Positions 1,987 to 58,704 of a stretch of 58,704 nt of DNA are shown piece by piece. The number at the start of each line of letters is the position of its first letter. Positions within the stretch are counted from its first letter, which is position 1. The translations under genes were made by a program, and so were the position numbers. Origin of the DNA: a virus; the IMG/VR virus record IMGVR_UViG_3300035494_000106, positions 1 to 58,704 of that record; one strand, 5' to 3'. The notes below the pieces were generated by a model. That model was not told the DNA's origin. It made no database searches and saw only the letters and a program-made list of their open reading frames with translations.

Positions 1987-2616
1987 ATGATCATGCCTGA
2001 GACACGGGAAATAACCATATACCAGTTCGACGAGCTGAGCGACAAAGCCAAGGAGAAAGCCCGCGAGTGGTACCGCAACGGCCAGCTCGACTACGACTGG
2101 TGGGAGGCCGTCTACGACGACGCCGACAAGATCGCCTCGATCATCGGCATCGACATTGACCGCAAAGACAAGAACACGCCGGCGATCTACTTCAGCGGGT
2201 TCTCGAGTCAGGGCGACGGCGCCTGCTTCGAAGGCTCGTACCGTTACAAGAAGGGCTGGCGTAAAGAGCTGGCCGAGTACGCTCCGCGGATCGGGACCAA
2301 CGCCGACATCTGGCAAATCGCCGAAGCGCTACAAGCCATCCAGGCGCGCCAGTTCTACAAGCTGGAGGCAACCTGCTGGCAGCACGGCCACTACCGGCAC
2401 AGCGGCGGCATGAGCGTCGACGTGGAGCACGCTGACGACCGCTACCGCGACATTGGCGACGCCGAGGACGAGATTCGAGACCAGCTCCGACTATTCGCCG
2501 ACTGGATCTACGGCCGCCTCGAGCAGGAGCACGACTGGCTGACAAGCGACGAGCAGGTCGACGAGGCGATCCGCGCCAACGAATACGAATTTCTCGAAAA
2601 CGGGAGCCTAGCATGA
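1987..2616 (+). CDS. Conserved phage/plasmid-type protein of unknown function
   Basis: GGAGGG RBS; start at ATG 1987 or 1993. Motifs YQFDELSDKAKEKAREWY and FSGFSSQGDGACFEG. The family name is not verifiable here. Confidence 0.7.
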   Translation: MIMPETREITIYQFDELSDKAKEKAREWYRNGQLDYDWWEAVYDDADKIASIIGIDIDRKDKNTPAIYFSGFSSQGDGACFEGSYRYKKGWRKELAEYAPRIGTNADIWQIAEALQAIQARQFYKLEATCWQHGHYRHSGGMSVDVEHADDRYRDIGDAEDEIRDQLRLFADWIYGRLEQEHDWLTSDEQVDEAIRANEYEFLENGSLA

Positions 2617-3002
2617 TCGAAATGAAGACGAGCGAGCTGATTGGGCCGGCGCTGGATTGGGCGGTGGCTATGTCTGAAGGCGCCACCAACCTGTACTTCG
2701 ATACGGTGGCGTGCTGGTGGTTCACCCTCAATGGGGCGGACCGGGTACTGAGTAGCGGCTGGTCAGAGAAGCAGAACTACTGCCCATCGACCGACTGGCG
2801 CTACGGCGGGCCGCTGCTCAAACCGAACCGGATCAGCCTGACGCAAAAGCACTCCGGCTGGGTAATCGCGTGCATCTACGACTCCAATGATGAGCCTACC
2901 CATATGCAACTGGCAGAAGACCCTCTGATCGCCGCCATGCGCTGCCTTTGTGCATCCAAGCTGGGCGACACGGTGCAGGTGCCACAGGAGCTGCTGCCAT
3001 GA
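2613..3002 (+). CDS. DUF2591 (NinX-like) family protein, paralogue A
   Basis: N-terminal ELIGPALDWAVAMSEG is typical of DUF2591 as I recall it. ATGA coupling on both sides. Confidence 0.75.
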   Translation: MIEMKTSELIGPALDWAVAMSEGATNLYFDTVACWWFTLNGADRVLSSGWSEKQNYCPSTDWRYGGPLLKPNRISLTQKHSGWVIACIYDSNDEPTHMQLAEDPLIAAMRCLCASKLGDTVQVPQELLP

Positions 3003-3346
3003 CCACCAAACCAACACACACCACCGTGCGCCGGCGGCACTCCGTCGGCGCCCGCAGAGCTCTGGACAAGGCCAAGCGCGAGCAGCTGGAACGCGAACTG
3101 GCCGACGCACTGGCATCACTGGACACACCAGCCGGCAAGGTCGGACTCCCTAAAGTAGGGAAGCCCCGGATCGTCGTCACGCTGACCGTTCGGCTACTCA
3201 ACGAAGGCGGGCTGCCTCGGCGGTTCGAGTGGACTGCGCCTCCCGGCACGTGGCCGGCTGAGGCCGTCCATCTGGCGAAGTTGGCAGCCCGTAAGGCCGG
3301 GTTCGTCGTCCACGCCCACATCGACACCGAGGAGCGAGTCCTATGA
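2999..3346 (+). CDS. Hypothetical protein (115 aa)
   Basis: ATG 2999 overlaps the stop at 3000-3002. Contains palindromic box 5. Confidence 0.65.
   Translation: MTTKPTHTTVRRRHSVGARRALDKAKREQLERELADALASLDTPAGKVGLPKVGKPRIVVTLTVRLLNEGGLPRRFEWTAPPGTWPAEAVHLAKLAARKAGFVVHAHIDTEERVL
3146..3162. promoter_or_regulatory. Palindromic box 5, CTCCCTAAAGTAGGGAA (inside ORF 2999-3346)
   Basis: The only copy that is fully intragenic; it encodes LPKVGK. Confidence 0.5.
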
Positions 3347-3744
3347 CCAGCATCGAAGTGAAAACCGCCGACCTGATCGGGCCGGCGCTGGACTGGGCGG
3401 TGGCCATGGCCGAGGGTGCGAAGCCTGAGAGGCCACATGACGGTCAAGTAAGTTTCGGCAGCGTCCATCTGCTATGCGGCAGTGATCAGGAGCGTGGATT
3501 TCACGCCCCGTTCTACTCGCCGTCCACCGACTGGAGCCAGGGCGGGCCGCTGATTGCGCGAGAGCGCATCGGACTGTGGCCCACTTCCAATGGCTATTTT
3601 GCTGAGAAGCGACACTTCGGTCGCCATCACAAGGCAGGGCGCAGTTACGGCGAAGGCCCCACATCCTTGATCGCCGCCATGCGCTGCCTCGTCGCCGCCA
3701 AGCTGGGCGACACGGTGCAGGTGCCCGAGGAGCTGCTGCCATGA
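3343..3744 (+). CDS. DUF2591 (NinX-like) family protein, paralogue B
   Basis: DLIGPALDWAVAMAEG plus a C-terminus nearly identical to paralogue A (AAMRCL..KLGDTVQVP.ELLP). Confidence 0.75.
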   Translation: MTSIEVKTADLIGPALDWAVAMAEGAKPERPHDGQVSFGSVHLLCGSDQERGFHAPFYSPSTDWSQGGPLIARERIGLWPTSNGYFAEKRHFGRHHKAGRSYGEGPTSLIAAMRCLVAAKLGDTVQVPEELLP

Positions 3745-8199: not shown

Positions 8200-8570
8200 A
8201 CGCCCAAAAAACACCGACCCAACTTCGCCGTGAGCACGAAGCCCGCACCGGAATGCGGGCGAACATGAGAACGTTCGGGTTCGAGGCGGTCAAGTACCGC
8301 CTCACTGGTGAGCCGACACGGTTCCGTGAGCAGACGGCGCGGGGCGAAGGAGGGTTCTTCATCCAGCGCACAATAGACAACATGTGGCGCATCGGCTGGC
8401 AGTCCGGCCGGCCGGTAGTCGGGGTCAAGGGAGGGCAGTGGTACCCCGAGCGCCCAGTCGAGTCACCATTATTTCCCGGGCCAGTAGCCGCAGCGCTGTG
8501 GTTCGAGGTGGAGAAATCAAATGGAACGATCCGTTTTAGACAGAGCCAAGACGCAGCTCGTACTCAATGA
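8196..8570 (+). CDS. Small paralogue-family protein (124 aa)
   Basis: ATGA coupling. ...GGQWYPERPVESPLFPGPVAAALWFEVE. The tail overlaps the VWA gene start by 50 nt. Confidence 0.65.
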   Translation: MNAQKTPTQLRREHEARTGMRANMRTFGFEAVKYRLTGEPTRFREQTARGEGGFFIQRTIDNMWRIGWQSGRPVVGVKGGQWYPERPVESPLFPGPVAAALWFEVEKSNGTIRFRQSQDAARTQ

Positions 8571-9723
8571 GCCGTTCTACGCCACGATTCTACTCAAGCT
8601 GGAACTGGTTGAGTGTGAGTCGGTGCCGGGGCTCGGCCCGCTGTGGCTGGCTGCCACCGACGGGCAGCACCTGTTCGTCAACCCGAAGAACTTCGAGCAG
8701 CTGTCCGTGGCCAAGGCCAAGGGCGTGCTCAAGCACGAGGTGATGCACGTCGCCCAGCTCCACCCGTTCCGCGGGCAGGGCAAGGAGCAGGTGCGCTGGA
8801 ACAAGGCGACCGACGACGTGATCAACCCGATGATCATCGACGAGGGCGGCGAACTACCTGACGGCGTGCGCTCCGGTGTGCGCGGCATGTCAGCCGAGGA
8901 GCGTTACAAAGACCTGCCGCCTGAGCCGCCGGGACAGGGAGGTGGCGGCTCTGGTCCGCACGACCCGCTGGGGCACGACGTCCTGCCGGCGCCGGACAAG
9001 AGCCAGGCTGCGGTGGACAAGACCAAGGCGATGATCGCCCAGGCTGCGTCGGTAGCGAAGGCACGCGGCAAGCTGCCCGAGTCGCTGCGCTCGGAGATCG
9101 ACAAGGTGCTCAAGCCCCGCGTCGACTGGAAGGAGCAGCTGCGCCAGTGGCTGACCGAGGCGTCGCAGGCGGACTACTCGTTCCGCCGACCGAACCGTCG
9201 CTTCATCACCGGCGACGATCCGATCTACCTGCCGTCGATGATGGGTGACAACCAGGCGATGGACACGCTGGTCGTGGTGCTGGATACCTCTGGCTCCATC
9301 ACGATGGCTGAGCTGTCGCAGGGGCTGGGCGAAATCTGCGGCGCCGTGGCTGACGTGTCTCCGAAGCGGTTGGTGGTAGCCTACTGCGACGCAAAGGTGC
9401 AGCACCACGACGTGTTCGACCAGCCGCAGGGTGCAGAGGTAGCCAAGTCGTTCGAGCACCACGACGTGTTCGACCAGCCGCAGGGTGCAGAGGTAGCCAA
9501 GTCGTTCGAGCGCCACGGCGCGGGCGGCACGAACATGGTGGCGGCCCTCAAGTGGGTCAACCGCAACTACCCGACGGCCAAGGGGGTGATCGTCTGGACC
9601 GACGGCGAGACTCCGTTCGGCAACGAGGAGGACTACGAGTACCCCGTGCTGTGGGCGATTACCTCCCCTCGTATCGAAGCGGACTGGGGGACAACGCTGC
9701 ACGTTGTCGTCGGCGATGACTAA
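8521..9723 (+). CDS. Metallopeptidase-like (HExxH) + von Willebrand A domain protein (DUF2201-type partner of MoxR)
   Basis: HEVMH zinc motif, MIDAS-like VVVLDTSGS and GGTN. Contains the 54-bp duplication. Confidence 0.9.
   Translation: MERSVLDRAKTQLVLNEPFYATILLKLELVECESVPGLGPLWLAATDGQHLFVNPKNFEQLSVAKAKGVLKHEVMHVAQLHPFRGQGKEQVRWNKATDDVINPMIIDEGGELPDGVRSGVRGMSAEERYKDLPPEPPGQGGGGSGPHDPLGHDVLPAPDKSQAAVDKTKAMIAQAASVAKARGKLPESLRSEIDKVLKPRVDWKEQLRQWLTEASQADYSFRRPNRRFITGDDPIYLPSMMGDNQAMDTLVVVLDTSGSITMAELSQGLGEICGAVADVSPKRLVVAYCDAKVQHHDVFDQPQGAEVAKSFEHHDVFDQPQGAEVAKSFERHGAGGTNMVAALKWVNRNYPTAKGVIVWTDGETPFGNEEDYEYPVLWAITSPRIEADWGTTLHVVVGDD
9403..9510 (+). repeat. Perfect 54-bp tandem duplication (x2), in frame within the VWA gene
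   Basis: 9403-9456 = 9457-9510. Encodes HHDVFDQPQGAEVAKSFE twice. Confidence 0.95.
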
Positions 9724-11892: not shown

Positions 11893-12177
11893 GTGCGCCG
11901 GAGGCTCAGCAAACAGCACTGCCGGTGCACCTCGAAGACGAAGTGCGGCCGGCGGTTCAAGGGGTTCCCGGGCGTGACGCCTTGCCCTCACTGCGGAGCC
12001 GCCGGCAGGTTGGACAAGTGGGCGGACAAGAAGCCCTGGAAGAAACGCGACAGGCTCTGCTACTGCAGCGCCTATGAATGGGGCGCGTACGGGTCGCCGC
12101 ACCGTGAGGGGTACGGCGCCTGCTACTACGCACCGAGGAGGGACGATGACACCCAAGAAACCGATGCTGGCGTGTGA
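11893..12177 (+). CDS. Cys-rich putative zinc-ribbon protein (94 aa)
   Basis: CRC..KC and CPHC pairs, GC-rich third codon positions, GTG start. Overlaps the ligase start by 32 nt. Confidence 0.5.
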   Translation: MRRRLSKQHCRCTSKTKCGRRFKGFPGVTPCPHCGAAGRLDKWADKKPWKKRDRLCYCSAYEWGAYGSPHREGYGACYYAPRRDDDTQETDAGV

Positions 12178-13048
12178 CGCGCCGGCCGTTCTCAACTTCC
12201 CGCTGGTCGTCAGCCCTAAGCTGGACGGCATTCGCTGCACAGTCTGGCCAGGCGAGCCGATGACCCGGGCGCTCAAGCCAATCCCCAACAAGTTCGTGCG
12301 TGAGACACTGGCCACCGCCCGGCTGCCGGCTGTGTTCGACGGCGAGCTGGTGGTAGGTGAGGCGAACCACCCCGATGTGTACCGCCGCACTACTAGTGGG
12401 ATCATGTCGCACGAGGGCCAGCCCGACTTCACCTTCTGGGTGTTCGACTACGTGCCAGGGGTTACCAACGGACTTATCGAGAACACCTTCGAGGCCAGGT
12501 ATGCGCGGCTCACCAACCAGACCGGCGCGATCCAGGCAGTGCACCCCTGGTTTAAGGTGCTGCCTCAGACCGTGGTGCACAACCGCGACCAGCTGGATGG
12601 GTACGAGCAGCAGATGCTGGCCGAGGGGTTCGAGGGGATCATCGCCCGCAGCCTCGACGCCCCATACAAGCACGGTCGGTCGACCCCGAAGGAAGGCTAC
12701 CTGCTGAAGGTGAAGCGGTTCGTGGATACCGAGGTCGAGGTGGTCGGTGTCGAGGAGCTGATGCACAACGCCAACGAGGCGACGATCAACGAGTTGGGCC
12801 ACACCCAGCGCAGCAGCGCCATGGCAGGGCTCGTGCCGGCCGGCGTACTGGGTGCGCTGATCTGCCGCTGGGGCGCGCACACGTTCAAGGTCGGCACCGG
12901 GTTCACGGCTGAGCACCGGGCTGAGCTGTGGCAGAAGCGCGACGCGCTGATCGGCAGCCTGGCGAAGATCAAGTACTTCGAGCAGGGGATGAAAGACTTG
13001 CCTCGCCACCCGGTGTGGTTGGGGTTCCGCGACGGGAGGGACATGTGA
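12146..13048 (+). CDS. ATP-dependent DNA ligase
   Basis: Adenylation motif SPKLDGIR (KxDG), EGIIA and LLKVK motifs. GGAGGG RBS before ATG 12146. Confidence 0.9.
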
Positions 13049-13395
13049 TGAACAAGCAAGAGCACGAAGCCCTGCGGCTGTGTGTCGAAGCGCTCGACCA
13101 GCTGCTGCCGTACCTGGCCAAGGTGCCGGCCGACGTCGGGCTGCTGAACGATGCGCTGGTGGCAGCACGGCCGCTACTCAAGCAGGAGCCAGCCCCGGCG
13201 CAGACCGCCCCGCAGGGCAAGTTCGCCATCGGCGACCGCGTGAAGAAGACCAGTGGCAGCGAGTGGGTCGGCCGCGTCTGCGGCACCTACTCCACACCCC
13301 TGACCCCGGAAGGCTACGCCGTGGAGAGCGAAGCGCACGCCGGCAGTGTGCAGATTTACCCGGACAAGGCGCTGGAAGCTGCGCCGGAGGAGTGA
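13048..13395 (+). CDS. dfrB: R67/DfrB-type (type II) dihydrofolate reductase homologue with a 58-aa N-terminal extension
   Basis: Residues 59-110, [52 protein letters not shown], match 36/52 positions of R67 DHFR as remembered, including GSVQIYP. Confidence 0.8.
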
Positions 13396-13397
13396 CC

Positions 13398-13736
13398 ATG
13401 GCCTGCGTTGTGGTGTACCCGAACCCGATGAAGCCGAAGCCAGGGCGCCCGCTCTGGCACATGCTCAAGGGGCAGCTGGATGGCAAGCCGTGCCGCTGGT
13501 CAGTCACCGTCTGGTACGACGTACCCGAGCAGGCGCTCGGGTATGACGAGGTACTGGGCATCCACGAGAAGAACCCGCGCAAGCTGTCGCTACGAGTCGA
13601 CAAGCCAAGCTGGTTGCAGGACGTCATTCGGGAAGTGATCGACCCGGAGATGGCCGCCGAAGCCGAGCGCGTCCGCGCGATCGTGCCCGACGGCAAGATC
13701 ACCAACATCAAATGGCAAGCAGTTCAGGAGAGATAA
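13398..13736 (+). CDS. Hypothetical protein (112 aa)
   Basis: GGAGGAG RBS before ATG 13398. Confidence 0.7.
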   Translation: MACVVVYPNPMKPKPGRPLWHMLKGQLDGKPCRWSVTVWYDVPEQALGYDEVLGIHEKNPRKLSLRVDKPSWLQDVIREVIDPEMAAEAERVRAIVPDGKITNIKWQAVQER

Positions 13737-13737
13737 T

Positions 13738-14196
13738 GTGAACCAGAACGACGAGCAGGTGATGGTCGTACCGCGGGAGCTAGCAGCCCGCGCAGCGGGC
13801 AAGCTGAGCGACTTGGGACAAAGCCAAGTATCAGAACCTTTGTTTGAGATCATCAACGAGCAGGACGAGCTGCGTGGTACGCCCCGCCACCGGCGAGCTG
13901 GCTACGACGTCGACGTACCTGGCTACGAGAAGCTGCGCAACGTACTCGAGCGGGCGTACGACCAGGCAGCAGTAACCAAGGGCGCCGAGCGGCACGCCAA
14001 CGACAGACCGTTCCACGAGCAGCCGATGCAGACCATCGCCGACCGCCGTGGCATCGGCTTCATCCTCGGCCAGGTCGACAAGAAGACCGAGGAAGCGCAA
14101 GGCATGATCGACCGCGGCGAAAACGACAAGGCGGTCCACGAACTACTCGGTGCCATCGTGTACCTGGCTGGCGCCATCATCTTTCTGGAGAAGTGA
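13738..14196 (+). CDS. Possible MazG-like/all-alpha NTP pyrophosphohydrolase-family protein
   Basis: GTG start after AGGAG. KGAERHA...GQVDKKTEEA...ELLGAIVYLAGAIIFLE resembles phage NTP-PPase-like proteins, but the assignment is weak. Confidence 0.6.
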   Translation: MNQNDEQVMVVPRELAARAAGKLSDLGQSQVSEPLFEIINEQDELRGTPRHRRAGYDVDVPGYEKLRNVLERAYDQAAVTKGAERHANDRPFHEQPMQTIADRRGIGFILGQVDKKTEEAQGMIDRGENDKAVHELLGAIVYLAGAIIFLEK

Positions 14197-14197
14197 C

Positions 14198-14899
14198 ATG
14201 ACTCAAGATGTCAGCATCGACCTCGAAACCCTGGGCAAAAACCCGCAGGCGCTTATCCTTTCGATCGGCGCCGTGAAGTTCAACCGCCACACTGGCGTGA
14301 TCCTCGACGAGTTCTACCGTGTCATCGACATTGAGGCCGAGGGCGGCGGCGTCATTGACGCCAGCACCGTGGCCTGGTGGATGCGCCAGGAGGCAGCCGC
14401 GCGTGACGCTGTCTTCGGCGAGGAAGTAGATAAGGTGCCGCTGCTGCACGCACTGGTGGAGTTCAGCGAGTGGCTCGGCTACAACGAGGAGCTCGAGGAC
14501 GGCAAGTGGCCGGACGTGTACCTGTGGCAGCGCGGGGACAAGGATGCGCAGTGGCTGACCAGCGCCTACGAAGGCATGGGCCTGCGGGTTCCGTTCCCCT
14601 ACTGGGCGGTGGGCGACCAGCGCACCCTGTGCAACGCCATCCCTGCCACCTATCCTGGCCGTGCCGGCGTGCACCACAACGCGTTGGCGGACGCCATCTA
14701 CCAGGCGGGCTGCATCCACGCTGCGTTCGATCGGATCAAGCAGCTGGATACCCTGCGCGTCGAGCGTACTGAGGACGGCCTGCGCGTGCGCTGCGTGAAC
14801 GACGTTGGCACCGCCGCTGTGTACGTCGACCCGGTCGGACTGGCGCACGAGGTGTTCGCTGCTCAGGCCACGGCGCCGTCGGACAGCGAAACGGAGTGA
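14198..14899 (+). CDS. DnaQ-like 3'-5' exonuclease
   Basis: ExoI IDLETLG and ExoIII HHNALADA (H-x4-D). Confidence 0.85.
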   Translation: MTQDVSIDLETLGKNPQALILSIGAVKFNRHTGVILDEFYRVIDIEAEGGGVIDASTVAWWMRQEAAARDAVFGEEVDKVPLLHALVEFSEWLGYNEELEDGKWPDVYLWQRGDKDAQWLTSAYEGMGLRVPFPYWAVGDQRTLCNAIPATYPGRAGVHHNALADAIYQAGCIHAAFDRIKQLDTLRVERTEDGLRVRCVNDVGTAAVYVDPVGLAHEVFAAQATAPSDSETE

Positions 14900-15245: not shown

Positions 15246-16400
15246 ATGAGCAAGATTGCAGACGAGCTACACGCAGCATCCCGACCCCTGTTTGAGGCGA
15301 TCGCCGCCATCATCGAGGGCAAGAGTACGTCGGCACCCCAGCCGCAGCCGGACCCCCAGCCAGAGCCGCGCAAGCGGGGCGTCATGGGGCTGAACCTGGG
15401 TATGGGGGCTGGAGCCGAAGGGTTCCTGCCTGGCACGCAGGGGCAGCATTACATGCTGCCGGTGGAGTCGGAGATCAAGCGGGCCGTCGAGCAGTACGGC
15501 GTGAAGCGGTTCAGGATCGGTGGGCTGTGGGAGCGGTGCATCAAGCCCGGCGGCAAGTCGGAGGTGTACCTAGGGCACGATCCGCAGGGCAAGCCGTACA
15601 CCCTGACGCAGGCGCTGCAGGTGGGGCGCTGGTGCAAGAAGTATGGGGCCACGATCCTCTGGGACTTAATGCACAACTACGGCGGCTACAGCAGCACCGG
15701 CAGTGGGGCGCAGCGCAAGAAGGTAGGTGCCACTGGCGGACCAAGCACCAAGCTGTTCGCCAAAGACTGGGCGGCCATCATCAAGGTGCTGCGCTCCGAC
15801 CCGGATTGTTGGGAGGCGACGTACGGGATCGACACTATGAACGAGTGGGTAGGCGTCAGCCACGCCACCGTGTTCGACGCGGCGCAGCAGTTCCTCGACG
15901 AGTGCGCCCCGCTGCTGGACAAGAAGATGGCGGTGTTCGAGGGTGCGGACTGGTCCAGCACAATCAACTGGGTCAAGAACAATCCCGACTACCACAAGCT
16001 GAAAGACCCGCGCGGTCCTGGGCTGGTCGAGTTCTCCGGCCACCTGTACCTCGACCAGAACGCCGGCGGTGGGTATGACACCGGCGACACGATCAGCGCG
16101 CAGGAGATGGCGGCGGGCGCGACGTTCGAGAACATCGGCGTCAAGCGGGCCGAGTCGTTCTTCAACTGGTTGGAGAAGAACGGGGTGAAGGGCAGCATCG
16201 GCGAGACGATTGTGCCTGGCGATTTCCCCGGGCTGTTGAAGGGCATGGACAACCTGATCCGCGAGGCGCTGGACCGCGGAGTCGACGTCTACGTGTTCGG
16301 GATGGGCGACTGGTTCGGCAAGACCGCGCACCACAACGTCGAGAGCGCACGCAACAAGAACATGCTGGAGCTGGTTAAGACCCACGCGAAGGCGAGTTGA
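15246..16400 (+). CDS. Glycoside hydrolase family 5-like (clan GH-A TIM barrel) enzyme
   Basis: The ordered signature fits GH5: LWDLMHNY, TMNEW (acid/base NE), GHLYLD (HxY), SIGETIV (nucleophile GE), GDWFG. Has an N-terminal PQPQPDPQPEP linker and no obvious signal peptide. Confidence 0.75.
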   Translation: MSKIADELHAASRPLFEAIAAIIEGKSTSAPQPQPDPQPEPRKRGVMGLNLGMGAGAEGFLPGTQGQHYMLPVESEIKRAVEQYGVKRFRIGGLWERCIKPGGKSEVYLGHDPQGKPYTLTQALQVGRWCKKYGATILWDLMHNYGGYSSTGSGAQRKKVGATGGPSTKLFAKDWAAIIKVLRSDPDCWEATYGIDTMNEWVGVSHATVFDAAQQFLDECAPLLDKKMAVFEGADWSSTINWVKNNPDYHKLKDPRGPGLVEFSGHLYLDQNAGGGYDTGDTISAQEMAAGATFENIGVKRAESFFNWLEKNGVKGSIGETIVPGDFPGLLKGMDNLIREALDRGVDVYVFGMGDWFGKTAHHNVESARNKNMLELVKTHAKAS

Positions 16401-18601: not shown

Positions 18602-18769
18602 ATGGTAGTGGACATGAAGAAAGCCCGGCTCCGTGCCGGGCTGATGAAGGCGGCCGACACAGCCACACAGCTGGCCAACTTGGTGAAGTCGCCGGCCGAC
18701 CGGGCGCGGCTCAAGGCCAAGGCCGAGCGCCTGGCCAAGCGTGCAGAGGAGCTGCCGACATGCGGATGA
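18602..18769 (+). CDS. Small basic helical protein (55 aa; below the ORF-track cut-off)
   Basis: GGGGGTG RBS before ATG 18602 and GC-rich third codon positions. Overlaps the next gene start. Confidence 0.5.
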   Translation: MVVDMKKARLRAGLMKAADTATQLANLVKSPADRARLKAKAERLAKRAEELPTCG

Positions 18770-19857
18770 TCATTGCAGGGTCTCGCGGGATCGACAGCTC
18801 GGCTGACTACGTGCGGCTGAAGAACGCGGTGATGAAGTTCCCCATGCCGACGGAGATCATCAGTGGCGGGGCCAAGGGGCCGGACCAGATGGGCGAGCGT
18901 ATCGCCGCCGAGTTCGGCATCCCGGTCAAGCAGTTCATCCCGAAGTGGCAGAACCCCGACGGCTCGACCAACAAGGGCGCCGGCTTCATCCGCAACGGCG
19001 ACATGGCTGTGTACGCCAGCGAGGTGGAAGGTAGCGTGCTGGTGGCGATGTGGGACGGCGTCAGCCGTGGCACGGCGCAGATGATCGAAGTGGCCAAGAA
19101 CTACGGGCTGACCGTCGAGGTGGTTCACCCGATGGCTGGCATCCTCAAGGACGCCACGCCGGCGGAGCCGTATATCTTCCCACAGTCGCACTCGTCGCTG
19201 AGCGTGTTCGAGACCTGCCCGCGCCAGTACGAAGCCAAGTACATCACCCGCGAGGTCAAGTTCCAGCAGGGCGCAGCCGCTGCCTGGGGCGACAAGGTGC
19301 ACCTGGCGCTGGAAGGGTACCTGCTCAGTCAGGGTGCGCAGGCGCTGCCGCCGGAGATGGCACAGTACCAGGGGCTTGGGCAGTGGGTACTCCAGCGGGC
19401 GCAGCAGAACGGCGGCATCATCCACGTGGAGCGCAAGGCCGGGGTCAAGAAGGACCGGACCGCCAGCGCCTACGGCGCCAAGGGGAACTGGTTGCAGGGC
19501 AAGATCGACGTCACGATCGTCTACCCGCACCTTGCCAGCGCCGAGGTATTCGACTGGAAGACCAACGAGAAGATCAAGAACGACGCGACCCAGCTGAAGA
19601 TGTACAACGGGTTCACGCTCGCTGGCTTCCCTGAGGTCGAGGTGGTACGCAGCGGCTACGTGTGGCTCAAGCATGGGCAGATCGCCCCGCCGCTGGCCAC
19701 GTCGCGCGACGGCATCGACGATATCTGGGCCGTGTTCCAGCAGAAGTACGACCGCCTGCGCGACGCGTACATGCGAGGTACGTTCCCAGAGCGGCCGAAC
19801 GGACTGTGCAAGAAGTACTGCGACGTGCTGTCCTGCCCGCACAACGGGAGGAAGTAG
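18760..19857 (+). CDS. Fusion of a SLOG/DUF2493 (YspA-like) domain with a Cas4-like PD-(D/E)XK nuclease
   Basis: N-terminal MIIAGSRG..ISGGAKGPDQ..WDGVSRGT. C-terminal FETCPRQY, IDV...FDWKT, QLKMY and CKKYCDVLSCP (4-Cys cluster). Only the part from 18760 onward is taken from ORF 17710-19857. Confidence 0.85.
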   Translation: MRMIIAGSRGIDSSADYVRLKNAVMKFPMPTEIISGGAKGPDQMGERIAAEFGIPVKQFIPKWQNPDGSTNKGAGFIRNGDMAVYASEVEGSVLVAMWDGVSRGTAQMIEVAKNYGLTVEVVHPMAGILKDATPAEPYIFPQSHSSLSVFETCPRQYEAKYITREVKFQQGAAAAWGDKVHLALEGYLLSQGAQALPPEMAQYQGLGQWVLQRAQQNGGIIHVERKAGVKKDRTASAYGAKGNWLQGKIDVTIVYPHLASAEVFDWKTNEKIKNDATQLKMYNGFTLAGFPEVEVVRSGYVWLKHGQIAPPLATSRDGIDDIWAVFQQKYDRLRDAYMRGTFPERPNGLCKKYCDVLSCPHNGRK

Positions 19858-22853: not shown

Positions 22854-24266
22854 ATGAGCAACGTGGTCCCCTTCCAAAACATGCAAGCCCCTGCCTTCCT
22901 GGCCCAGGTCAACCTTACCCCGGATCAGGTTCGCGCGATGAACGCAGCCGCAGCCGTCGGTACCGGCGGTGGCGGTCTGAACAAGATCAGCCTCAAGCAG
23001 TCCCGCTTCCGTATGGTCGTGGGTGGCCAGGAGCAGATCATCCCCTCCCTGTCGATCGACATGGTGCTGGTGCGCGTCAACGACGGCATCAACAAGACTT
23101 GGTACGAGAAGGACTGGAACCCGAACGAAGACGCCGGCATGCCGGACTGCTCCAGCGACGACGGCATCACCCCGCGCGCTGACTCTCCGAAGCGCCAGTG
23201 CGACACCTGTGCTGCCTGCCCTCGCAACCAGTGGGGCTCGAAGATCAATCAGGTGACCGGCGCCAAGGGCAAGCAGTGCCAGGACACCAAGCGCATGGCC
23301 ATCCTGCCGCCGGGTCCAGACGGACGCTACGCATCCAGCGACAGCCTGTTCCAGCTGGCCGTGCCGCCGGCATCGCTCGGCGACTTCGGTGGGTTCGTGC
23401 GCAACCTGGCTGCCATGCCAACCCCGGCTGCGTACAACATGGTGGTGTGCGAGGTCTCGTTTGACCCTCAGGTCACCTACCCGAAAATCCTGTTCCGCCC
23501 CAAGCGCTGGCTCGACAACGACGAGTGGGAGCATGTCAGCAAGCTGTACGATGATCAGGAGACCAAGCGCGTAGCTGGCCTCGCTGAGGCCCAGACCATG
23601 CAGCTGACCAATGCGAACAACGTCGCGCCGCAGGCCCAGCCGCAGATGCAGCAACAGGCTCAGCAGAACTGGAACCAACCTCAGCAGCAGGTGCAGCCGC
23701 AGCAGAACTGGAACCAACCTCAGCAGCAGGTGCAGCCGCAGCAGAACTGGAACCAGCCGCAGCAGATGGCTCAGCAGCCTCAGGCCGTTGACCAGGGCGC
23801 CAACTGGAACCAGCCCCAGCAGGCCCAGCCGCAGCAGAACTGGAACCAGCCGCAGCAGCAGCCTCAGCAGCCGGTGCAGCAGCAGCCTCAGCAGCAGCCT
23901 CAGCAGCCGGTGCAGCAGCCGGTGCAGCGCGAACGTGGCAAGCCGGCACCTGGTCGTAGTCGTCGGACCAAGGAGGAGATGGAGGAAGACCGCCTGGCCG
24001 ACGAGCGCGACGCTATGATGGCGCAGCAGAACGCTCAGACCCAGCAGCCGGCGCAACAGCAGGCTCAGCAACCGCAGCAGAGCTGGGGCCAGCCGCAGCC
24101 GGTGGCTCAACAGCCGGTACAGCAGGCCCAGCAGATGCAGGTCGACCCGAACAACCCCTGGGCCGGCGCCGGTCAGCAGCCTCAGCAGACGGGGGCTCCG
24201 ATCCAGCCCAACGTCATGGGCGGTGACGTAGCCAGTGCCTTCCAGGGCTGGGACGATCCGCAGTAA
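22854..24266 (+). CDS. Putative ssDNA-binding protein with a Cys4 cluster and a long Q/P/N-rich linker
   Basis: C..SDDG..C.TC..CP.NQWGS, then QQNWNQPQQ repeats and an acidic tip, FQGWDDPQ, reminiscent of the SSB linker and tip. Inferred function. Confidence 0.75.
   Translation: MSNVVPFQNMQAPAFLAQVNLTPDQVRAMNAAAAVGTGGGGLNKISLKQSRFRMVVGGQEQIIPSLSIDMVLVRVNDGINKTWYEKDWNPNEDAGMPDCSSDDGITPRADSPKRQCDTCAACPRNQWGSKINQVTGAKGKQCQDTKRMAILPPGPDGRYASSDSLFQLAVPPASLGDFGGFVRNLAAMPTPAAYNMVVCEVSFDPQVTYPKILFRPKRWLDNDEWEHVSKLYDDQETKRVAGLAEAQTMQLTNANNVAPQAQPQMQQQAQQNWNQPQQQVQPQQNWNQPQQQVQPQQNWNQPQQMAQQPQAVDQGANWNQPQQAQPQQNWNQPQQQPQQPVQQQPQQQPQQPVQQPVQRERGKPAPGRSRRTKEEMEEDRLADERDAMMAQQNAQTQQPAQQQAQQPQQSWGQPQPVAQQPVQQAQQMQVDPNNPWAGAGQQPQQTGAPIQPNVMGGDVASAFQGWDDPQ
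23661..23765 (+). repeat. 39-bp tandem repeat (about 2.7 copies) encoding QQNWNQPQQQVQP
   Basis: 23661-23699 = 23700-23738 exactly; a third partial copy follows and a degenerate copy lies near 23833. Confidence 0.9.
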
Positions 24267-38568: not shown

Positions 38569-38934
38569 TTATTTGCTCCCGAAGGGCAACAGTCGGTCTA
38601 TGAACGCGATGAACCTGGCCTCAAGAGCGTGCACTACGGGGAAAGCGAAGAAGCCGAGTAGCATCACAATACTATCCCTGAACTGGTTTTCCTCTGGGAT
38701 CAGCCCGCCAAGGGCTTTGCCAAGGAACGCGGCGAGGATCACGTTCGCCACCAGCACGCCCCATAAGAACTTGCGGTTCTTCGTTGCGTTCAAATAGTAG
38801 AAGTTGGCAATGCCCCCGAATGCGCCGAGGAGGCCGAGGTGCCCCCAGAGCAACACCCCCTCGAAAAAACGTAGCAGTCGATCGACTATATCCACAGCGC
38901 GCTCCTTAGGCTTGTGCTCGCACAATGCTACCAC
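38569..38934 (-). CDS. Holin candidate, 3 TM helices
   Basis: GVLLWGHLGLLGAFGGIANFY, FLWGVLVANVILAAFLG and SIVMLLGFFAFPVV. GTG start overlaps the stop of the giant gene. Confidence 0.7.
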   Translation of the reverse strand: MVALCEHKPKERAVDIVDRLLRFFEGVLLWGHLGLLGAFGGIANFYYLNATKNRKFLWGVLVANVILAAFLGKALGGLIPEENQFRDSIVMLLGFFAFPVVHALEARFIAFIDRLLPFGSK

Positions 38935-41900
38935 GTACCAACCTGTTCCATAATAGACCGGGCTGGTGGCCGTGCCGACGCGGCGCCGTACGAGCTGGCG
39001 TTGAGCTGTGACTTGACCCGCGTAACGATGGCCCGGCGCAGGTCGGAGCCTTTGACGGCCATGTCGGGGAAGTCAGAGTTCCACCGGTGGATGCTGTCCA
39101 TCGCCTCGTTGATCATGTCCTGATCGCTGGTGGCGTGGCCCAGGGCGAGGCGCCCCAGGTACCGCTGCTTTAAGGTCTGAGCCCGGATGCTGGCTTCGTA
39201 GGTGGCGCCGCGGATTTCCTCAGCCTCACGGCGCCCGCCGCTGCGCAGGCCCATCACACCAGTGACGGTGTCCCAGATGCCCGGCTCGTAGTAGACGATC
39301 TGGCGGGAGTCCTTGGCGCCCTGCTGCCCCTCGAAGAACGCCTTGTATACGTCGCGCACGCCGGCCGGAGCCAGGTTCTTGACGGCTGCCACGTGGTCGC
39401 CCTGGATCGCCTTCTCGATGCCGGTGAACAGGTTGGCGCCCAAGCCTGCCCATGGGCCGAGGTGCTGCAGGACGTAGTACTGGAACGTCTCCTTGGCGCT
39501 GGCACCCGCCGGGGCGTAGTTGCCGCCGAACGACACCAGGCCATCGGCGCCCACGCGGCTCAGGTCCAACGCTCCTGCGAGCAGGCCGTGGGCCAGCCAC
39601 TGCGGTGCTGCGCGAACGAACTCGGTGCGGCTATCCAGCAGGTCGTCATCGTCGCGGAACGCGTCGGCGATAAAGAACGCGATCGGCGCCAGGACTGTGC
39701 CGGCGGCGCCGGTGAGTGCAAGCTGGGTGCCCAGCTGCCAGGCCAACGCGCGGCGGGCCACCTGCTTCTCCTCCGGCGTGCCGGAGAACGAGTCGCGGAT
39801 ATCCTTGGCCATCATGGCCAGCATGTTCACGCGGTACTGCTGAAACTGGAACACCACCTTGCGCCACGGCCCCTGCATCACGGTCGGCTTGTTCGACTGG
39901 CTGTAGTCGTACTGAGTGGTCAGGGTCGCTGCGTCCGCCACGTCAGCGATCTCTGCCAGCTGTTCCGGCGTAGCCTGCCCCTTGATCCCGCGCTTCTGCA
40001 TCTCCAACCGGGTTGCGGCCAAAGCCACCACCTGGCGGTTGAACACCTCGGAACGGTGCATGAACATCCCGCCGATCTCTAGCGCCTTGCGCCAGCCACC
40101 GGACATGGACATGCCGACGTCGCCGGCGGCGAGGCTGGCCATGTCGTGCCACAGGGTGAAGTCCAGAGTGCCGCGCACGAACAGTTCCTGCAGTACCTGC
40201 CGCTCGACGCTATCTGCAGCCAGGATGGACTTGGCTCCCAGCATGTCGCCGCGGCTCTTGGCGAAGTCGGCCAGCGCCTGCTTGACGCCGCGCAGTGCTG
40301 CGCCGCTGCCGTAGCTGCCAGCCAGTCGCGGTAGGGTGACCATCGGGGTCTGCATGGAGTTGATCAGCAACTGGCTCGGCGAGGACAGGAACCACAGGAA
40401 GCCAGCCTGGCTAAGCGCGTCTGCCACAGGTGAGCGCTCCTGACGAAGGGACGCTTGGTGCTGCCGCTTGGCCGCCTCCAGTACGCGCTGGCGCTTGATA
40501 CCGTCTGCGTCGTTGGCGTTGTCGCTAGCCACTTCCTGCAGTTGCACCAACTTCTCGCTGATCTGCCCGTCGTAGCGCAGGCTGGCCACGCTGCGGGCCG
40601 CCTTGATCGAGTAGTCGCTGAACGCGCGGAACGCGTCAGTGGTTGCGCCCTTGGTGTTCTTCCGGCGGTTGGCGTGCTGCAGGAACGAGCCCTGGGGCAG
40701 TGACTGCAGGTACGCTTCCACCAGCCCCTCGCGGATAGCGCGGTGCAGCTGCGGGTCGGCCGCCTGCGACACGATGCCGTCGGTAGCTCGCTCGATCGCC
40801 CGGATGGTCTGCTGACTGATGCCGTCCAGCTCCCAGTTCTGCTCGCGGCGCAGCGTTGGCTGCGACACGCTGTAGCTCGAGGAGTCGGCGTAGTCGCCAG
40901 TCAGCAGTTCCTTGCGGGTGGCGTTCGCCTCCTCGATGGTGTCGTGGCCAGAGAACCACTCGATCCGGCCGTTCTTATCGCGGACGGTTACCAAGTAGTC
41001 GCCGTAACGCTGCAGCGGGGAATAAGGACCGGTCCGCATCTTCTTCATGGCCGACTCGATCCGGTCGCCATACAGCTCCTTGAACTTGTCGCTGGCGAAG
41101 AACTCGGCGTCGGTCTGGCCGCCGGTCTTGTAGACCCGGGCGATCTCGTTGCGCAGTGCGTTGAAGCGGGCATTCCACATGTAGGAGTAGAGTGCCTGGG
41201 TCTCCTTGTACAGCTGCTGACCTTCCTGCCCTACGGACTTCCACAGCTTGACCAGGTCTCGGTGCGCCTGCTCCCGCTCGGCCTGCGTGAAGTTCATCTC
41301 GGCGTAGTTGAGCTGCGACTGCTTGTCCATGGAGCGGTCAGGCCATAGCCGGTAGAGCGTGCCCACCTGCTGCATCTGGTTCCAGGCTTCCATGCGCGCC
41401 GGGTTCCGCTGCGCGAACGCCTTGATCTTGTTGGCCGTGGCCATCGGCGAGACTTCGCCGAGCTGCTCGCCGTGGTAGTTCAGCTCACGCCCAGAGGTGA
41501 TGATCTTGTTGAAGGTGGCTTCCTTGCCACGCTTCAGGCGGGCGAACTCACCCAGCTTGCCGCTGAAGTACTTGTCGTAGAGGTTGGCCAGCTGGTTGAG
41601 CGGGACGGCGTCCAGAACCCCAGCCCGTACCTTGTCAGCCGCAGTGGCGGTGCCCAGCGACTTGACCTTCTGCAGTGCGTCGAGGCCAATGCCCTTGGCG
41701 ACGTCGGCGATGTTGCGGCGGGTGCCGTCGCCCTCGGCGGAAGCAGCAGCGATCACCTCGTCTATGTCAGCCACAGCGCGGGAGAACCGAGCGTCGCCGG
41801 CGAGCCAGGATGCTGGGTCGTTCATGGCGAACTCTAGCCCCTGCAGGTGCCCAGCGTTGCGGTTGAGCGCGGCGGGACTGGTACCCTTCGCCACTGCGGC

Positions 41901-44900
41901 GGTGTCTCGCAGCAGGGCGTCGACCTGCTCGTTGGTCATGGTCAGCTTGGAGTAGCCCAGCATGGAGGCGAACGCGTTCTCCACGGCGGAACGCGCCTTG
42001 GTCAGCACGTCGCCGCTGACCTTCTCCCCGCCGGCCAGCATGTCGGCCAGCACTTCTTCCGCAGCCAAGCGGCGCAGACCGCCCTGCTCTGGGTCGGTGG
42101 TGCCGGCCAGCTCGTGCATCTTGGCCTTGATCCGAGTGCGGGTCGCGGCGTTGGTCCACAGGCGGTTCACCACCGCAGGCAGCCGGTCGCCCAGCAGGGC
42201 AGCCAAACCAGCGTGGCCGCGCTCGTGAGCCAGCGTCAGCGCCATCTGCTCGCCGTTGGCCAGGTTCTCGCGGATCAGGTACACCTTATCGCCAGCGAAC
42301 ACACCGCGCGCGTCTGGCGGGGCGGCGTGGCCGGTCATAGCCTCGAAGTCGGCCACAGTTTCCACAGCCACCACCTCCGGGCTGCCGGCCGCGCGGTTGC
42401 GGTTGGCTGCAGCTACGAGGGTGGCGAACTGGGTCAGGTCCATAGGCGCGCCGCGCTCGCCGGCCGGTGTGCGATCGAACCGGGCGGTGCCGTTTTCGAG
42501 GGCGTCGTACCGCAGGTTGAAGTCGTTCGCCAGCGTGTCTTGGTCCTTGGGCTTCAGCTTGGCCCAGCCGGAGTGATTCTTGATAGCGATGAAGTACTCG
42601 TCCAGCATGTCGGTGCTGTTGGCGTCCATCAGCATGTCGGCATAGGCGTCCACCGTCGCGGTGTAAGCATCGGTGGTCGGGTCCAGGCGCATGTTGCGCT
42701 GAATCATCTGGTCGATGTTGAGCGGCTGCGGCGAGGAGAAGTCGACCGGCGCCGGCGCGGTAACGGCAGGAATCCGACCCGGCAGTTCGCGCAGGGCTTC
42801 GGCCTTGGTCTCGCCGAGGTAGATGCCCTGGTTACCGCCCACAGCCTGGCCGTCCACCTCCGACAGTATCCAGCCGCTCAGCGTCACGCCGCCGTCTCCC
42901 TGCTGCCGGAAGATTCGCGCGCTACGTCCGTCGCTCAGGCCGACCTCGTAGTAGGTGCCGCCGTCCGTGTAGCCGCCGCGTACCTGCTTGGAGCCGGTGA
43001 CGCGGGGCAGGGTCGGTGCTTCCGCAGTTTCGCGTGCGGCCGAGCCTCGGTCGCCGGGTTCTGCGCCCTGCGTAGGGGCGACAGCATCCATCTCGTTGTT
43101 CAGGCCGTCGTCGACCGCAGGGGCAGGCTCGACCGCAGGGGCAGGCTCGACCGCAGGGACAGGCTCGACCGCAGGGGCAGGCTCGACCGCAGGGGCAGGC
43201 TCGACCGCAGGGACAGGCTCGACCGCAGGGACAGGCTCGACCGCAGGGACAGGCGATCCTGCCAGCGCGGCGTACTTCTCGGCCAGCTTCGCTGCGAACA
43301 ACGGCGCGCTGGCAGGATCGCCGGCCACCTTCGGCGCTACCTCAGCCAGGAACTGCGCCGCGTTCGGGCTGAGCGGGTTCACGCCGGCCGCCTGAGCAGC
43401 AGCCTCGAAATCCTGCCACGCCTTGCCGCGGAAGTGCTGCGGCTTCAACCCGAGCTCGCGGGCCAGGGCTTTCTTCCACGTCGGGGCTGGGGCGTCGAAG
43501 TCGATCGCCTGCTGGTTCTTCGGCGCAGGAGTCGGGGCCGGCTCTACCGGCGCTGCGTCCACAACCTGCGGGAACGCTCCCTCAGCCGGCAGCGGGCCGG
43601 CAAACAGGTCGGTTCCGCCGAGGCGTCCACGGTTGCGCTGTGCATCCACCACGCCGAGCAGGCCGGCACGCGGCGGAGCCGGCACCTCCTCGACTTCCAT
43701 GAGCGGTGGAGTAGGTGGGGTTACCTGCGGCCGGCGGCCAGTAATGTCGTAGAGCGAGCGCAGCGGCGCGGGCGCCGGGGTCACTTCCTCTACAGCCACC
43801 TCCTCCACGGTCGGCGTCGGTATGCCGACCGGAGTGGCGCCCATGTCGATCTCCTCGACAGGGACCGGCGCGGCGCCAAGGTCGATCTCCTCGATAGGCG
43901 AGTCACCGAGCCCGCTAGGCTTGATCGGCGAGCCCTGGCTGGCGTTCTCCCGCTGCAGTTGGTCGCGCAGTGCTTGGCCCAGCGGAGTGTCTGCACTCGG
44001 GCGCGCGCTGCGCAACGAGACCAGTCCGCCCATACCGCCGCCGAGGACGCCGCCAGCCAAGCCACCGAGGGCGGCCTGCTCGCCTACGCCGGCGAACAGA
44101 TCAGTGTTGGGGGTGAACAAGTTCTGAGCTATACGCTCGGTAGCGGACTGCGCCGATTCCTCAGCAGCCTCGCGCGCGAAGCCGCCGCCTACGTTGCCGG
44201 CCAAGCTACCAGTGAGCCCCAGCCGCGCACCGCCAGGCAACGCATTGGCTGCGGCGGTCTCAAGCGCACCGGCGCCCGTAAGGCGCATGACGGCGGGGGC
44301 CGCCACCCCCGCCAGCACGCCGGCCCCCAGGCCGCCCAGCTGCTGCTCCAACTCTGTTGCGCCTGCCTCACGGGCGGCGTTGATCGTGTCCACGTTGACC
44401 GCGCCTGCTACCTGGCCGCCCACCGCCCTACCAAGCGCCTTCTGCGCCGCTTTACTGGCCACCTGCTGAGCAGCCTGACCAGTCAGCCCACGAGCGGTAG
44501 CATTCGCTGCGCCAGCCACTGCGCCGGCGCGAGCAGCTGCGGCGCCCGGCAACAGCGACGGCAGGTTGCTTACAAGCAGTTGCTGCAGGAACGCCGGGGA
44601 GGTAGCAGCTTCGCCTAGACCGGCCAGTACGCCCTCATTCTCTAACGTCTGCGAGACATTCTGCGCAGCCCGCTGTGTCGGGGCTGACTGCCACGAGGAG
44701 AGAATCTGCTGCGTCTCGCCAAAGTTGTCGGACAGCCCAGTCACGCGGTCGAGCACACCGAGGCTGGCCATGTTAGCAAGGCCGTAGCCGGCCTGGCCGA
44801 GGCTGACAGCGCCGCTTAGCAGCTGAATCGGGACGTTCGCCAGTGCCTCGCCCCAGGTATTCGAGCGCGTCGCCTCGGCCTCAGCTGCAGCCTGACGCAG

Positions 44901-58577: not shown

Positions 58578-58704
58578 TTTGTATACCGAGTAATTTTGGG
58601 TCCGCGATATACGGGACGGGGGTAATACGCTACCCGCGCGCCCTGGTTCCCCCAGCCCCTCCGTCCCCTCGCCCAAAAAGAATTATTTTTCTTCGCCCGT
58701 TCCC
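58578..58704. repeat. Terminal exact repeat, copy 2 (identical to 1-127)
   Basis: Same 127 nt as the window start. Confidence 0.95.

Follow-up and report, generated by a model that had tools for sequence, protein, structure and literature searches.

R67 dihydrofolate reductase (DHFR), or DfrB1 (PDB 1vie, 2rk1), is a 78-residue protein of SH3-like fold encoded in a plasmid/integron cassette. Homologues encoded by phages have been reported before. Open reading frames (ORFs) resembling dfrB2 were listed from freshwater viromes in 2020 (PMC7265639). In 2023, Lemay-St-Denis et al. assayed two phage homologues, DfrB-H3 (Pseudomonas phage) and DfrB-H4 (Vibrio phage), of which DfrB-H4 conferred trimethoprim resistance (PMC9835603). 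A survey published in 2025 characterised 148 homologues and catalogued 20 viral ones; trimethoprim resistance was obtained from 114 of the 123 homologues predicted to form DfrB1-like tetramers (PMC12486381). Homologues of its cluster I are predicted with high confidence to form the tetramer, and cluster-I members with a VQIY strand show normal kinetics at only 38–47% identity to DfrB1 (PMC12486381). N-terminal fusions of DfrB homologues remain active (PMC12486381, PMC9835603), the fused domains include nucleoside triphosphate (NTP) pyrophosphohydrolase, and the genes are associated with replication, recombination, and repair genes (PMC12486381). In addition, 26 phage records in GenBank are already annotated with DfrB. 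Here we analyse the 115-residue product (P0001) of one ORF in IMG/VR virus record IMGVR_UViG_3300035494_000106, positions 1 to 58,704 (hereafter the window, meaning this whole stretch of 58,704 nt). Its C-terminal DfrB domain is the last module of a gene built from exchangeable parts. An earlier note on this DNA had proposed a phage reservoir of the DfrB resistance family; phage DfrB homologues do exist, but the publications and annotations above show that such a reservoir is not new.

The C-terminal module of the window protein scores 83.8 bits (E = 7.5e-24) with the Pfam family DHFR_2 (PF06442, 'R67 dihydrofolate reductase'), for which the gathering cut-off is 25; residues 57–110 align to profile positions 22–75 of 78. 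A PDB sequence search retrieves R67 DHFR chains (E = 8e-19), and the SH3 core matches PHROG 31682. The earlier assignment of an R67/DfrB-type domain had been made with a remembered R67 sequence and a hand count of 36 identical positions among 52. The remembered sequence agrees with PDB chain 1vie across the aligned stretch, and both a position count and tblastn against plasmid dfrB1 give 36/52 (69.2%) for residues 59–110. In the AlphaFold2 (AF2) monomer model (mean predicted local distance difference test score, pLDDT, 77), five strands (64–67, 74–81, 89–94, 101–105, and 109–111) form a barrel, with block-mean pLDDT of 79–89 over the core. When the model is compared with the PDB by Foldseek, the top seven matches are all R67 DHFR, with a template-modelling score normalised to the target, TM(target), of 0.86–0.90 and a root-mean-square deviation of 1.3–1.4 Å. 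Judged by sequence and predicted fold, the C-terminal module is a bona fide DfrB/R67-type SH3 domain. Its VQIY strand and its 69% identity to DfrB1 clearly place the window protein in cluster I by sequence (PMC12486381).

The pore and interface residues of R67 are kept as well, namely K67 (R67 K32), W73 (W38), Y81 (Y46), T86 (T51), and H97 (H62), and the B4 strand S100-V-Q-I-Y104 corresponds to S65-V66-Q67-I68-Y69 of R67. In an alignment of 24 sequences including R67, the counterparts of K32, W38, Y46, T51, H62, and S65–Y69 are invariant. In R67, these residues act in the tunnel and at the subunit interfaces. Their roles in the DfrB tunnel and interface are also described in the 2025 survey (PMC12486381). 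Because the R67 fold and the key residues are conserved, the same homotetrameric tunnel enzyme is expected. The window protein differs from R67 in that W45 is replaced by Thr, in its length (115 against 78 residues), in that a helical module and a conserved joint take the place of the short disordered N-terminus, and in the location of its gene in the operon of a lytic-type phage instead of a plasmid/integron cassette. The DfrB cassette has a median ratio of nonsynonymous to synonymous substitution rates (dN/dS) of 0.31 over 528 pairs, indicating that the domain is, by this sequence measure, under purifying selection.

Upstream of the DfrB domain, the window protein has the architecture of a family of ORFs in which unrelated modules occupy slots separated by short joints. 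An ORF is assigned to this slot-module family if unrelated modules in it are separated by one or more joints of the PAQT(A/E)(P/Q)Q type, for which the DNA is a conserved island centred on GCGCAGACCG. Three joint types are distinguished, A (EPAPAQDE), B (RPAQTEQQP), and C (APIAQTAPQ), and the order is slot 1, joint A, slot 2, joint B, slot 3, joint C, terminal slot. The window ORF has a single joint, and modules are gained, lost, or replaced among its alleles between conserved flanks. Its joint carries PAQTAPQ, which is the sole PAQT[AE][PQ]Q motif in the window, and is predicted to be disordered (pLDDT < 50 for residues 49–55). In a three-allele alignment of the DNA, the left half of this joint is like joint A and the right half is like joint C.

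Five alleles are known at this locus (the window, L124, L125, L096, and L231), with flanks that are 88–98% identical. The window carries the minimal allele, composed of slot 1, the hybrid A/C joint, and DfrB. The L124 and L125 alleles carry extra modules, and the junction between the ligase gene and the DfrB ORF is also seen in both when the alleles are aligned. In L096, an IMG/VR contig whose flanking genes are 88–98% identical to those of the window, the same position is occupied by an ORF of 473 residues, in which the N-terminal module of the window protein is followed by about six others and DfrB is absent. The L231 allele, with two joints, begins with another module and also lacks DfrB. 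The locus is polymorphic for DfrB among sister phages, and DfrB is therefore an accessory, non-core element.

The first module, for which Pfam and PHROG return no match, had been described as a 58-residue helical N-terminal extension of the enzyme. Two helices (3–23 and 30–45) are indeed predicted, but the region is an independent shuffled module and not a dedicated appendage of the enzyme. Only two of 925 database homologues share the N-terminal 52 residues, P0002 (178 residues) and P0003 (171 residues). Both are encoded on short contigs with the gene order of the window, to which L096 is a closer relative, and each has a different module of ~60 residues between the N-terminal module and the SH3 core. 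The module also heads the alleles of L096, L124, and L125, and a related copy is found in L221, in a protein without DfrB. Because the left half of the window joint resembles A and the right half resembles C, as expected from joint–joint recombination, the window allele probably arose by deletion or fusion between the joints flanking a middle module.

The joints are conserved beyond their amino acid sequence. In IMG/VR, at least 251 contigs encode a relative of the SH3 core, and the 80 best were used for the locus analyses. In these 80 loci the SH3 core is the C-terminal part of a longer ORF, and no other module follows DfrB in any ORF that carries it. There are 92 copies of the joint motif in the DfrB ORFs (22.5 k residues), compared with 4 in all other six-frame sequence from the same loci (1.94 M residues). 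One identical 21-mer encodes 31 of the 33 PAQTEQQ joints, and likewise one encodes 38 of the 44 IAQTAPQ joints; joint codons are invariant in 80–81 of 81 instances. As a control (72 loci), the four-fold sites of invariant SH3 residues have a major-codon share of 0.50–0.69, and the DNA of the SH3 core has a mean pairwise identity of 83% (minimum 67%). These sequence comparisons argue that the joints are conserved at the DNA level and not only as peptides. The conserved island spans ~30 nt with GCGCAGACCG at its centre. Across 120 unique contexts for type B and 80 for type C, the sequences on both sides of it are unrelated.

Joints follow one another in a fixed order. Forward pairs are frequent (AB 52, BC 56, C-DfrB 56), skipping pairs are fewer (AC 7, B-DfrB 12, A-DfrB 1), and reverse pairs are rare (CB 2, CA 4, BA 0). 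The modules between the joints are diverse. When fixed 40-residue windows directly upstream of the last joint are strictly clustered, 57 module clusters are found directly upstream of DfrB among 76 unique DfrB ORFs. A single module, the Zn ribbon, is preceded by 10 different modules and followed by 6, and in 5 ORFs it is the terminal one. Joint-linked modules are seen across more than 130 phage or prophage ORFs, mostly from Stutzerimonas and Pseudomonas. In viral contigs, the exact type-B 21-mer is present in 101 distinct ORFs, of which 35 end in DfrB and ~64 do not carry it. Pfam and PHROGs provide no functional annotation for the partner modules.

ORFs with joints and without DfrB are found in L096 (681–2102) and in L126–L227 of IMG/VR, and in the bacterial genomes L239, L243, L244, L250, L252, and L254. 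Recurrent modules in them are a Zn ribbon with four Cys pairs (AYVECRECTDCGH...), a TYTAVDMATAAAQGFRDGQ module, and a module matching PHROG 8298 (FAAAMKAKLAKSR...GGWDD); the C-terminal ending ...RAALSAQGGE also recurs. In bacterial genomes the joint 21-mer has 24 matches, many of which are chance hits in genomes rich in guanine plus cytosine (GC). Matches in the context of the family come only from Stutzerimonas, other Pseudomonadaceae, and a few contigs of metagenome-assembled genomes that are probably mis-binned. This concentration in Stutzerimonas and other Pseudomonadaceae fits the GC content of the window and its relatedness to a Pseudomonas phage.

Of the mechanisms that might underlie this architecture, recombination between the ~30-nt joints has the best support. 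It would insert, delete, or swap modules, and may be the route by which DfrB moves between unrelated phages. Homology of ~30 nt is within the reach of Red/RecT-type recombinases, as is known from recombineering. Most of the DfrB-bearing viral loci resemble temperate phages of the type of PS-1, the closest cultured carrier, with the gene in an early int/Bet-Exo region, and PS-1-type phages encode Red/RecT-type recombinases adjoining the DfrB gene. The 80 loci share no other genes with the window except NinX-like ones. A conserved partnership of ligase, DfrB, and exonuclease was considered and rejected: the 80 other loci share none of the neighbours of the window gene, and 37 of 40 ligase-anchored loci from viral contigs have no DfrB match. 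No description of the linker and slot architecture was found in the searchable literature, including the 2025 survey (PMC12486381), which is a weak negative. We tentatively suggest, as a proposal that may well prove wrong, an undescribed 'slot-and-joint' shuffling system of Stutzerimonas/Pseudomonas phages in which the joints act as portable recombination sites, by which unrelated phages exchange early-gene modules in ordered slots, and DfrB is kept mainly as a terminal cassette that multimerises the effector modules upstream of it.

If the window allele is a recent deletion product, as its hybrid joint indicates, it could be a decaying passenger with no selected function. Truncated or frameshifted DfrB modules occur in L128 and L166 of IMG/VR, so the cassette does decay in some phages. 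Against this, the frame of the window gene is intact, re-translation agrees exactly with the earlier translation, and codon-position GC supports its coding status. A strong Shine-Dalgarno sequence precedes the start, and the translational coupling to the DNA ligase gene, noted earlier, is borne out, as the ligase TGA overlaps the ATG at 13048. All key residues are kept, selection on the domain is purifying, and an identical protein is found on 4 contigs. A passenger of this description is scarcely credible. From the ligase gene to the exonuclease gene, stops and starts overlap or abut, and there are no terminator-like sites on the plus strand between 10.3 and 16.4 kb. The DfrB ORF and its neighbours form a tightly packed operon of early or replication genes, from which the ORF is translated.

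The gene could also serve as a resistance determinant, shielding an infected or lysogenised host from trimethoprim or natural antifolates, and the phage would then be a vector for clinical dfrB or its source. Expression of members of the family makes cells very highly resistant to trimethoprim (PMC9835603, PMC12486381), and a close relative from Pseudomonas aeruginosa, P0051, is named a DfrB-family resistance protein by NCBI. However, the window protein is only 69–71% identical to plasmid DfrB1/2/3/4/10 (tblastn), and it scores 92.4 bits with the NCBIfam model NF000331 (trim_DfrB), below the antimicrobial-resistance cut-off of 137. It has 115 residues and not the ~78 of the clinical alleles, and its gene lies in a phage ligase–exonuclease operon (attC sites were not specifically searched for). 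The GC content of the gene, 0.68, is close to that of the genome, 0.64, and Pfam scans of the window reveal no integrase or lysogeny gene. The survey concludes that trimethoprim was not what drove the evolution of DfrB homologues and that most of them are located away from mobile elements, and it cites work that places the origin of the clinical alleles in Burkholderiales (PMC12486381). A resistance role is very improbable here. The sequence makes the window protein a family member, not a named resistance allele, and not a plausible direct ancestor of the clinical family, which the earlier note had suggested it might be.

In T4-type phages, DHFR is always paired with thymidylate synthase, and the window genome has no such partner. 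Nucleotides 1–127 are identical to nucleotides 58578–58704. This exact 127-nt direct repeat at the contig ends is the assembly overlap of a circular or terminally redundant genome; because the ends overlap exactly, the genome is complete, at ~58,577 bp. Dynamic programming on codon-position GC gave 67 genes. The products of all of these, from both arms, were concatenated into pseudo-proteins for Pfam scans, and selected ones were also scanned singly. As stated before, there is no ThyA or ThyX, deoxycytidine monophosphate (dCMP) deaminase, or ribonucleotide reductase (RNR) among the called genes, and none encodes FolA; for the ThyA family (PF00303) and ThyX there is no match at E ≤ 0.01 in the whole genome. 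The high coding density leaves no space for an undetected folate-partner gene. The absence had been presented as a special puzzle. It is real, but it is usual for the clade: ThyA is present in only 3 of 10 cluster-I viral genomes (PMC12486381), and PS-1 has no thymidylate synthase among its 79 annotated genes. A folate-dependent dCMP methyltransferase of the ThyA family, as in Xp12, was also considered as a reason for a DHFR and rejected, as the genome lacks any ThyA-family gene.

We favour, by a modest degree of belief, an accessory, tetramerising, trimethoprim-insensitive DHFR cassette that aids the supply of thymidylate (dTMP) in the host and is swappable via the joints. By analogy with DfrB1, four copies of the window protein would assemble into a homotetramer with a positively charged central tunnel. 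The tunnel would hold one molecule of reduced nicotinamide adenine dinucleotide phosphate (NADPH) and one of dihydrofolate (DHF), which would be converted to tetrahydrofolate (THF), and the enzyme would be intrinsically insensitive to trimethoprim. On the same analogy, the protein, if soluble, would very probably reduce DHF in vitro. The N-termini would point away from the tetramer, so that the hairpin and the disordered joint would be tolerated and displayed four-fold. In the cell, the cassette would top up host FolA, regenerating THF for ThyA-dependent dTMP synthesis by the host during replication of the 58.6-kb genome; the phage itself has no thymidylate synthase and would hence rely on host ThyA. 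We hold the benefit to the phage through dTMP supply with less confidence than the catalytic activity.

Several points weigh against this enzymatic role. DfrB enzymes are described as having an efficiency ~100-fold below that of FolA, and the authors of the survey argue that the domain may serve for binding or oligomerisation and reduce DHF only as a promiscuous side activity (PMC12486381). DfrB-H3, the closest phage homologue tested, conferred no trimethoprim resistance, which was blamed on the absence of soluble expression in E. coli (PMC9835603). Lytic phages deprived of a FolA-type dfrA have an unchanged burst size (PMC12466917), so a benefit in dTMP supply is not established even for conventional phage DHFRs. 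The DfrB domain is dispensable in sister phages, its fusion to at least 57 unrelated small modules is not predicted by simple auxiliary metabolism, and the recombination between joints is read from sequence patterns.

The main rival explanation, which we consider rather unlikely, is an oligomerisation hub. Here the SH3 module would be selected to tetramerise and thereby present four copies of the upstream effector modules, and DHF reduction would be incidental. DfrB is always last, following at least 57 upstream module types through the same joint, and the locus tolerates other terminal modules, as in L096 and L231. Neither the complete window genome nor PS-1 has a folate-linked partner. In addition, the conserved pore residues contribute to the assembly of the R67 tetramer, as is known from R67 mutagenesis. 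The 2025 survey proposes two native roles, one of which is oligomerisation (PMC12486381). However, the upstream part of the window allele is a 46-residue hairpin, with no obvious cargo for multimerising, and K32, Y46, T51, and the S-V-Q-I-Y strand are invariant in the 24 aligned sequences. Other active tetramers differ in their B4-strand motif (PMC12486381, Table 1), so its invariance in these sequences is compatible with selection for ligand binding.

Ligand binding could also be the function in itself. The tunnel may bind NADPH, an ADP-ribose-containing molecule, or another nucleotide-derived molecule, and the protein would then serve as a nucleotide binder or sponge. It could buffer such a molecule and donate it to replication or repair enzymes, or sequester a signalling or immune nucleotide of the host early in infection. 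Nucleotide binding is the other native role proposed in the survey; homologues keep a low-micromolar affinity for NADPH while their affinity for DHF varies, and DfrB1 weakly binds ADP-ribose (PMC12486381). The gene lies among early, replication, or recombination genes in the window, PS-1, and MW202697, and it is hypervariable and accessory, as counter-defence genes presumably often are. Against this, no known anti-defence family is matched, and the idea draws on gene context and on the weak binding data for DfrB1. We consider this more speculative option improbable. The enzyme, hub, and nucleotide-binding explanations are not mutually exclusive.

The closest of the tested phage homologues is DfrB-H3, which we take to be PS-1 protein PS1_05 (A0A0H5ARK7; 167 residues). 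Both are phage-encoded and have a cluster-I-type core (79% identical over residues 51–107) as a C-terminal SH3 domain after an N-terminal extension, with joints of the same family, in genomes without an annotated thymidylate synthase. In contrast to the window phage, PS-1 is a temperate siphophage with the gene in an early int/methyltransferase/Bet-Exo region and other upstream modules, and phages of its type have no other genes in common with the window phage. Modular endolysins and receptor-binding proteins resemble the slot-module family in that small autonomous domains are recombined at linkers in many combinations. They differ in that the linkers of the window family are ~30-nt islands with conserved synonymous sites in a fixed A-B-C order, located in an early or replication-arm gene.

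The frd/td genes of T4-type phages also provide a DHFR that is expressed with replication genes, but this enzyme has the FolA fold and is a core gene, not a swappable SH3 cassette. A phage DHFR encoded with replication genes is also described in PMC12466917. Cluster-II viral DfrB proteins and the fusion of DfrB to thymidylate synthase (DfrB-TS) are likewise tetramer-forming DfrB domains, in DNA viruses or in fusions (PMC12486381). For them, DHF reductase activity has been shown experimentally. They have ThyA within 20 kb or fused to them, and hence a clear rationale in the thymidylate cycle, while the window genome has no ThyA or ThyX. A separate arrangement is found in L082 (MW202697.1, 3696–5820), a 45-kb podophage, in which a gene for a 68-residue R67-type DHFR lies between two ORFs annotated as DNA polymerase. 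This suggests the insertion of a cassette into or beside a split polymerase gene. A class II RNR is encoded ~5 kb downstream of this DHFR gene.

The features of the DfrB ORF and of its neighbours are collected in Table 1. The ligase is 97–98% identical in the sister contigs L096 and L125. Gene 25 keeps its position and is 88–92% identical in L096, L124, L125, and L231; Pfam, PHROG, and further searches return no family for it. Gene 26 had been labelled MazG-like, a label that is unproven, as sequence searches of Pfam, NCBIfam, and the PDB return no MazG match. In its AF2 model, residues ~100–150 form a helical bundle with pLDDT > 90. The best Foldseek match is non-significant (E = 1.1), and the weak matches include HisE, AF_0060, and a MazG-related protein. 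Its domain is widespread in phages, with 509 homologues including one in Pseudomonas phage Persinger, has no Pfam family, and contains several invariant residues, K81-G82 and E84-R85-H86-A87 among them. The modelled fold hints at a candidate new pyrophosphatase-like family with an all-alpha likeness to HisE and MazG. The exonuclease gene reported near the DfrB ORF is recovered by both Pfam and PHROG. Between it and the DNA polymerase gene lies a 384-residue gene (15246–16400) with a Pfam match to glycosyl hydrolase family 5 (GH5, 'cellulase'; E = 3e-9), which is 96% conserved in L096; this is an odd location for a glycanase.

Table 1 Features of the DfrB ORF, its modules, and its neighbours in the window.
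Feature	Position	Strand	Basis
ATP-dependent DNA ligase, likely start ATG 12146, left flank	12074..13048	+	Pfam DNA_ligase_A_M, DNA_ligase_OB_2; PHROG 114, E = 2.9e-66
Shine-Dalgarno GGGAGGG (13034-13040) and TGATG stop/start overlap (13046-13050)	13034..13050	+	read from sequence
Complete ORF, 115 residues, two-module protein (helical module, joint, DfrB SH3 module)	13048..13395	+	translation
Slot-1 module, residues 1-46, helical hairpin	13048..13185	+	AF2 model, helices 3-23 and 30-45
Joint, residues E47-Q56, DNA GAGCCAGCCCCGGCGCAGACCGCCCCGCAG, core GCGCAGACCG at 13198-13207	13186..13215	+	motif search, DNA alignment
DfrB/R67-type SH3 module, residues G57-E110	13216..13377	+	Pfam PF06442, PDB alignment, Foldseek
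Short C-terminal tail AAPEE and TGA stop, DfrB being the final module	13378..13395	+	translation
Gene 25, 112 residues, right flank	13398..13736	+	conserved position
Gene 26, 152 residues, conserved helical C-terminal domain, invariant KGxERHA	13738..14196	+	PHROG 13898 and 8209 (without functional annotation)
Rv2179c-like DEDD 3'-5' exonuclease	14198..14899	+	Pfam PF16473, E = 2.7e-37; PHROG 255 exonuclease

The rest of the genome is that of a podophage. In Pfam scans, the plus-strand arm encodes, besides the ligase, the DfrB ORF, the exonuclease, and the GH5-like protein, a family A DNA polymerase, an SLOG/PD-(D/E)XK nuclease, an SNF2 helicase, and a primase-helicase. The minus-strand arm carries a GH108 endolysin gene and structural genes of podophage type (SU10-type adaptor, GP4 gp80-like fibre). 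No tRNA genes are detected in the window by ARAGORN. The closest cultured relative is Pseudomonas phage Rollin, the DNA polymerase of which is 49% identical; Rollin has much of the replication arm in common with the window phage and has no DfrB. At the DNA level, the sole similarity to known phages is to the ligase gene of Xp12-like Xanthomonas phages (76–84% over 82–166 nt).

Several further features were observed in the window. Two paralogous P22 NinX-like genes (2613–3002 and 3343–3744) lie 0.7 kb apart and share DNA repeats of 68 and 82 nt at their ends. In the gene at 8521–9723, which encodes a DUF2201 putative metallopeptidase/VWA protein, a perfect 54-nt tandem duplication (9401–9508) produces an in-frame 18-residue repeat (HHDVFDQPQGAEVAKSFE) in the VWA-like domain; the duplication may be a very recent event or an assembly artefact. 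A single 365-residue ORF (18760–19857) joins a YspA/SLOG-type domain (Pfam YAcAr) to the PD-(D/E)XK nuclease domain. A 470-residue replication-arm protein (22854–24266), for which no family match was found, has in its C-terminal half a long imperfect Gln/Pro-rich repeat (23646–24140) with units such as QQNWNQPQQQVQP and DNA periods of 39 and 18 nt. On the virion arm, a giant minus-strand ORF of 2019 residues (38928–44987) contains, at 43075–43290, a tandem array in which an 18-nt unit (plus strand, TCGACCGCAGGGGCAGGC) is present about nine times.

As a DfrB without ThyA in a phage, the window protein is one more member of a published and partly tested class, and the picture of a resistance reservoir is unchanged. 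What is new is that DfrB serves as a terminal cassette, open to exchange, in a gene family of slots and joints, that the joints are conserved as DNA, and that sister phages differ at one and the same locus in whether they carry DfrB. The number of viral DfrB genes is at least ten times that reported, with at least 251 IMG/VR contigs against the 20 of the 2025 survey. If the slot-and-joint system is real, it would be a major natural vehicle for the spread of DfrB. The architecture bears on the question raised in 2025, whether these proteins natively serve to reduce DHF or do so only as a by-product of binding or oligomerisation. Dozens of unrelated partners are linked to one SH3 cassette through one conserved joint, and phages of the sister group that differ only in having or lacking DfrB are isogenic-like natural variants. 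The short, DNA-conserved joints offer a checkable mechanism for the shuffling of small domains among phages.

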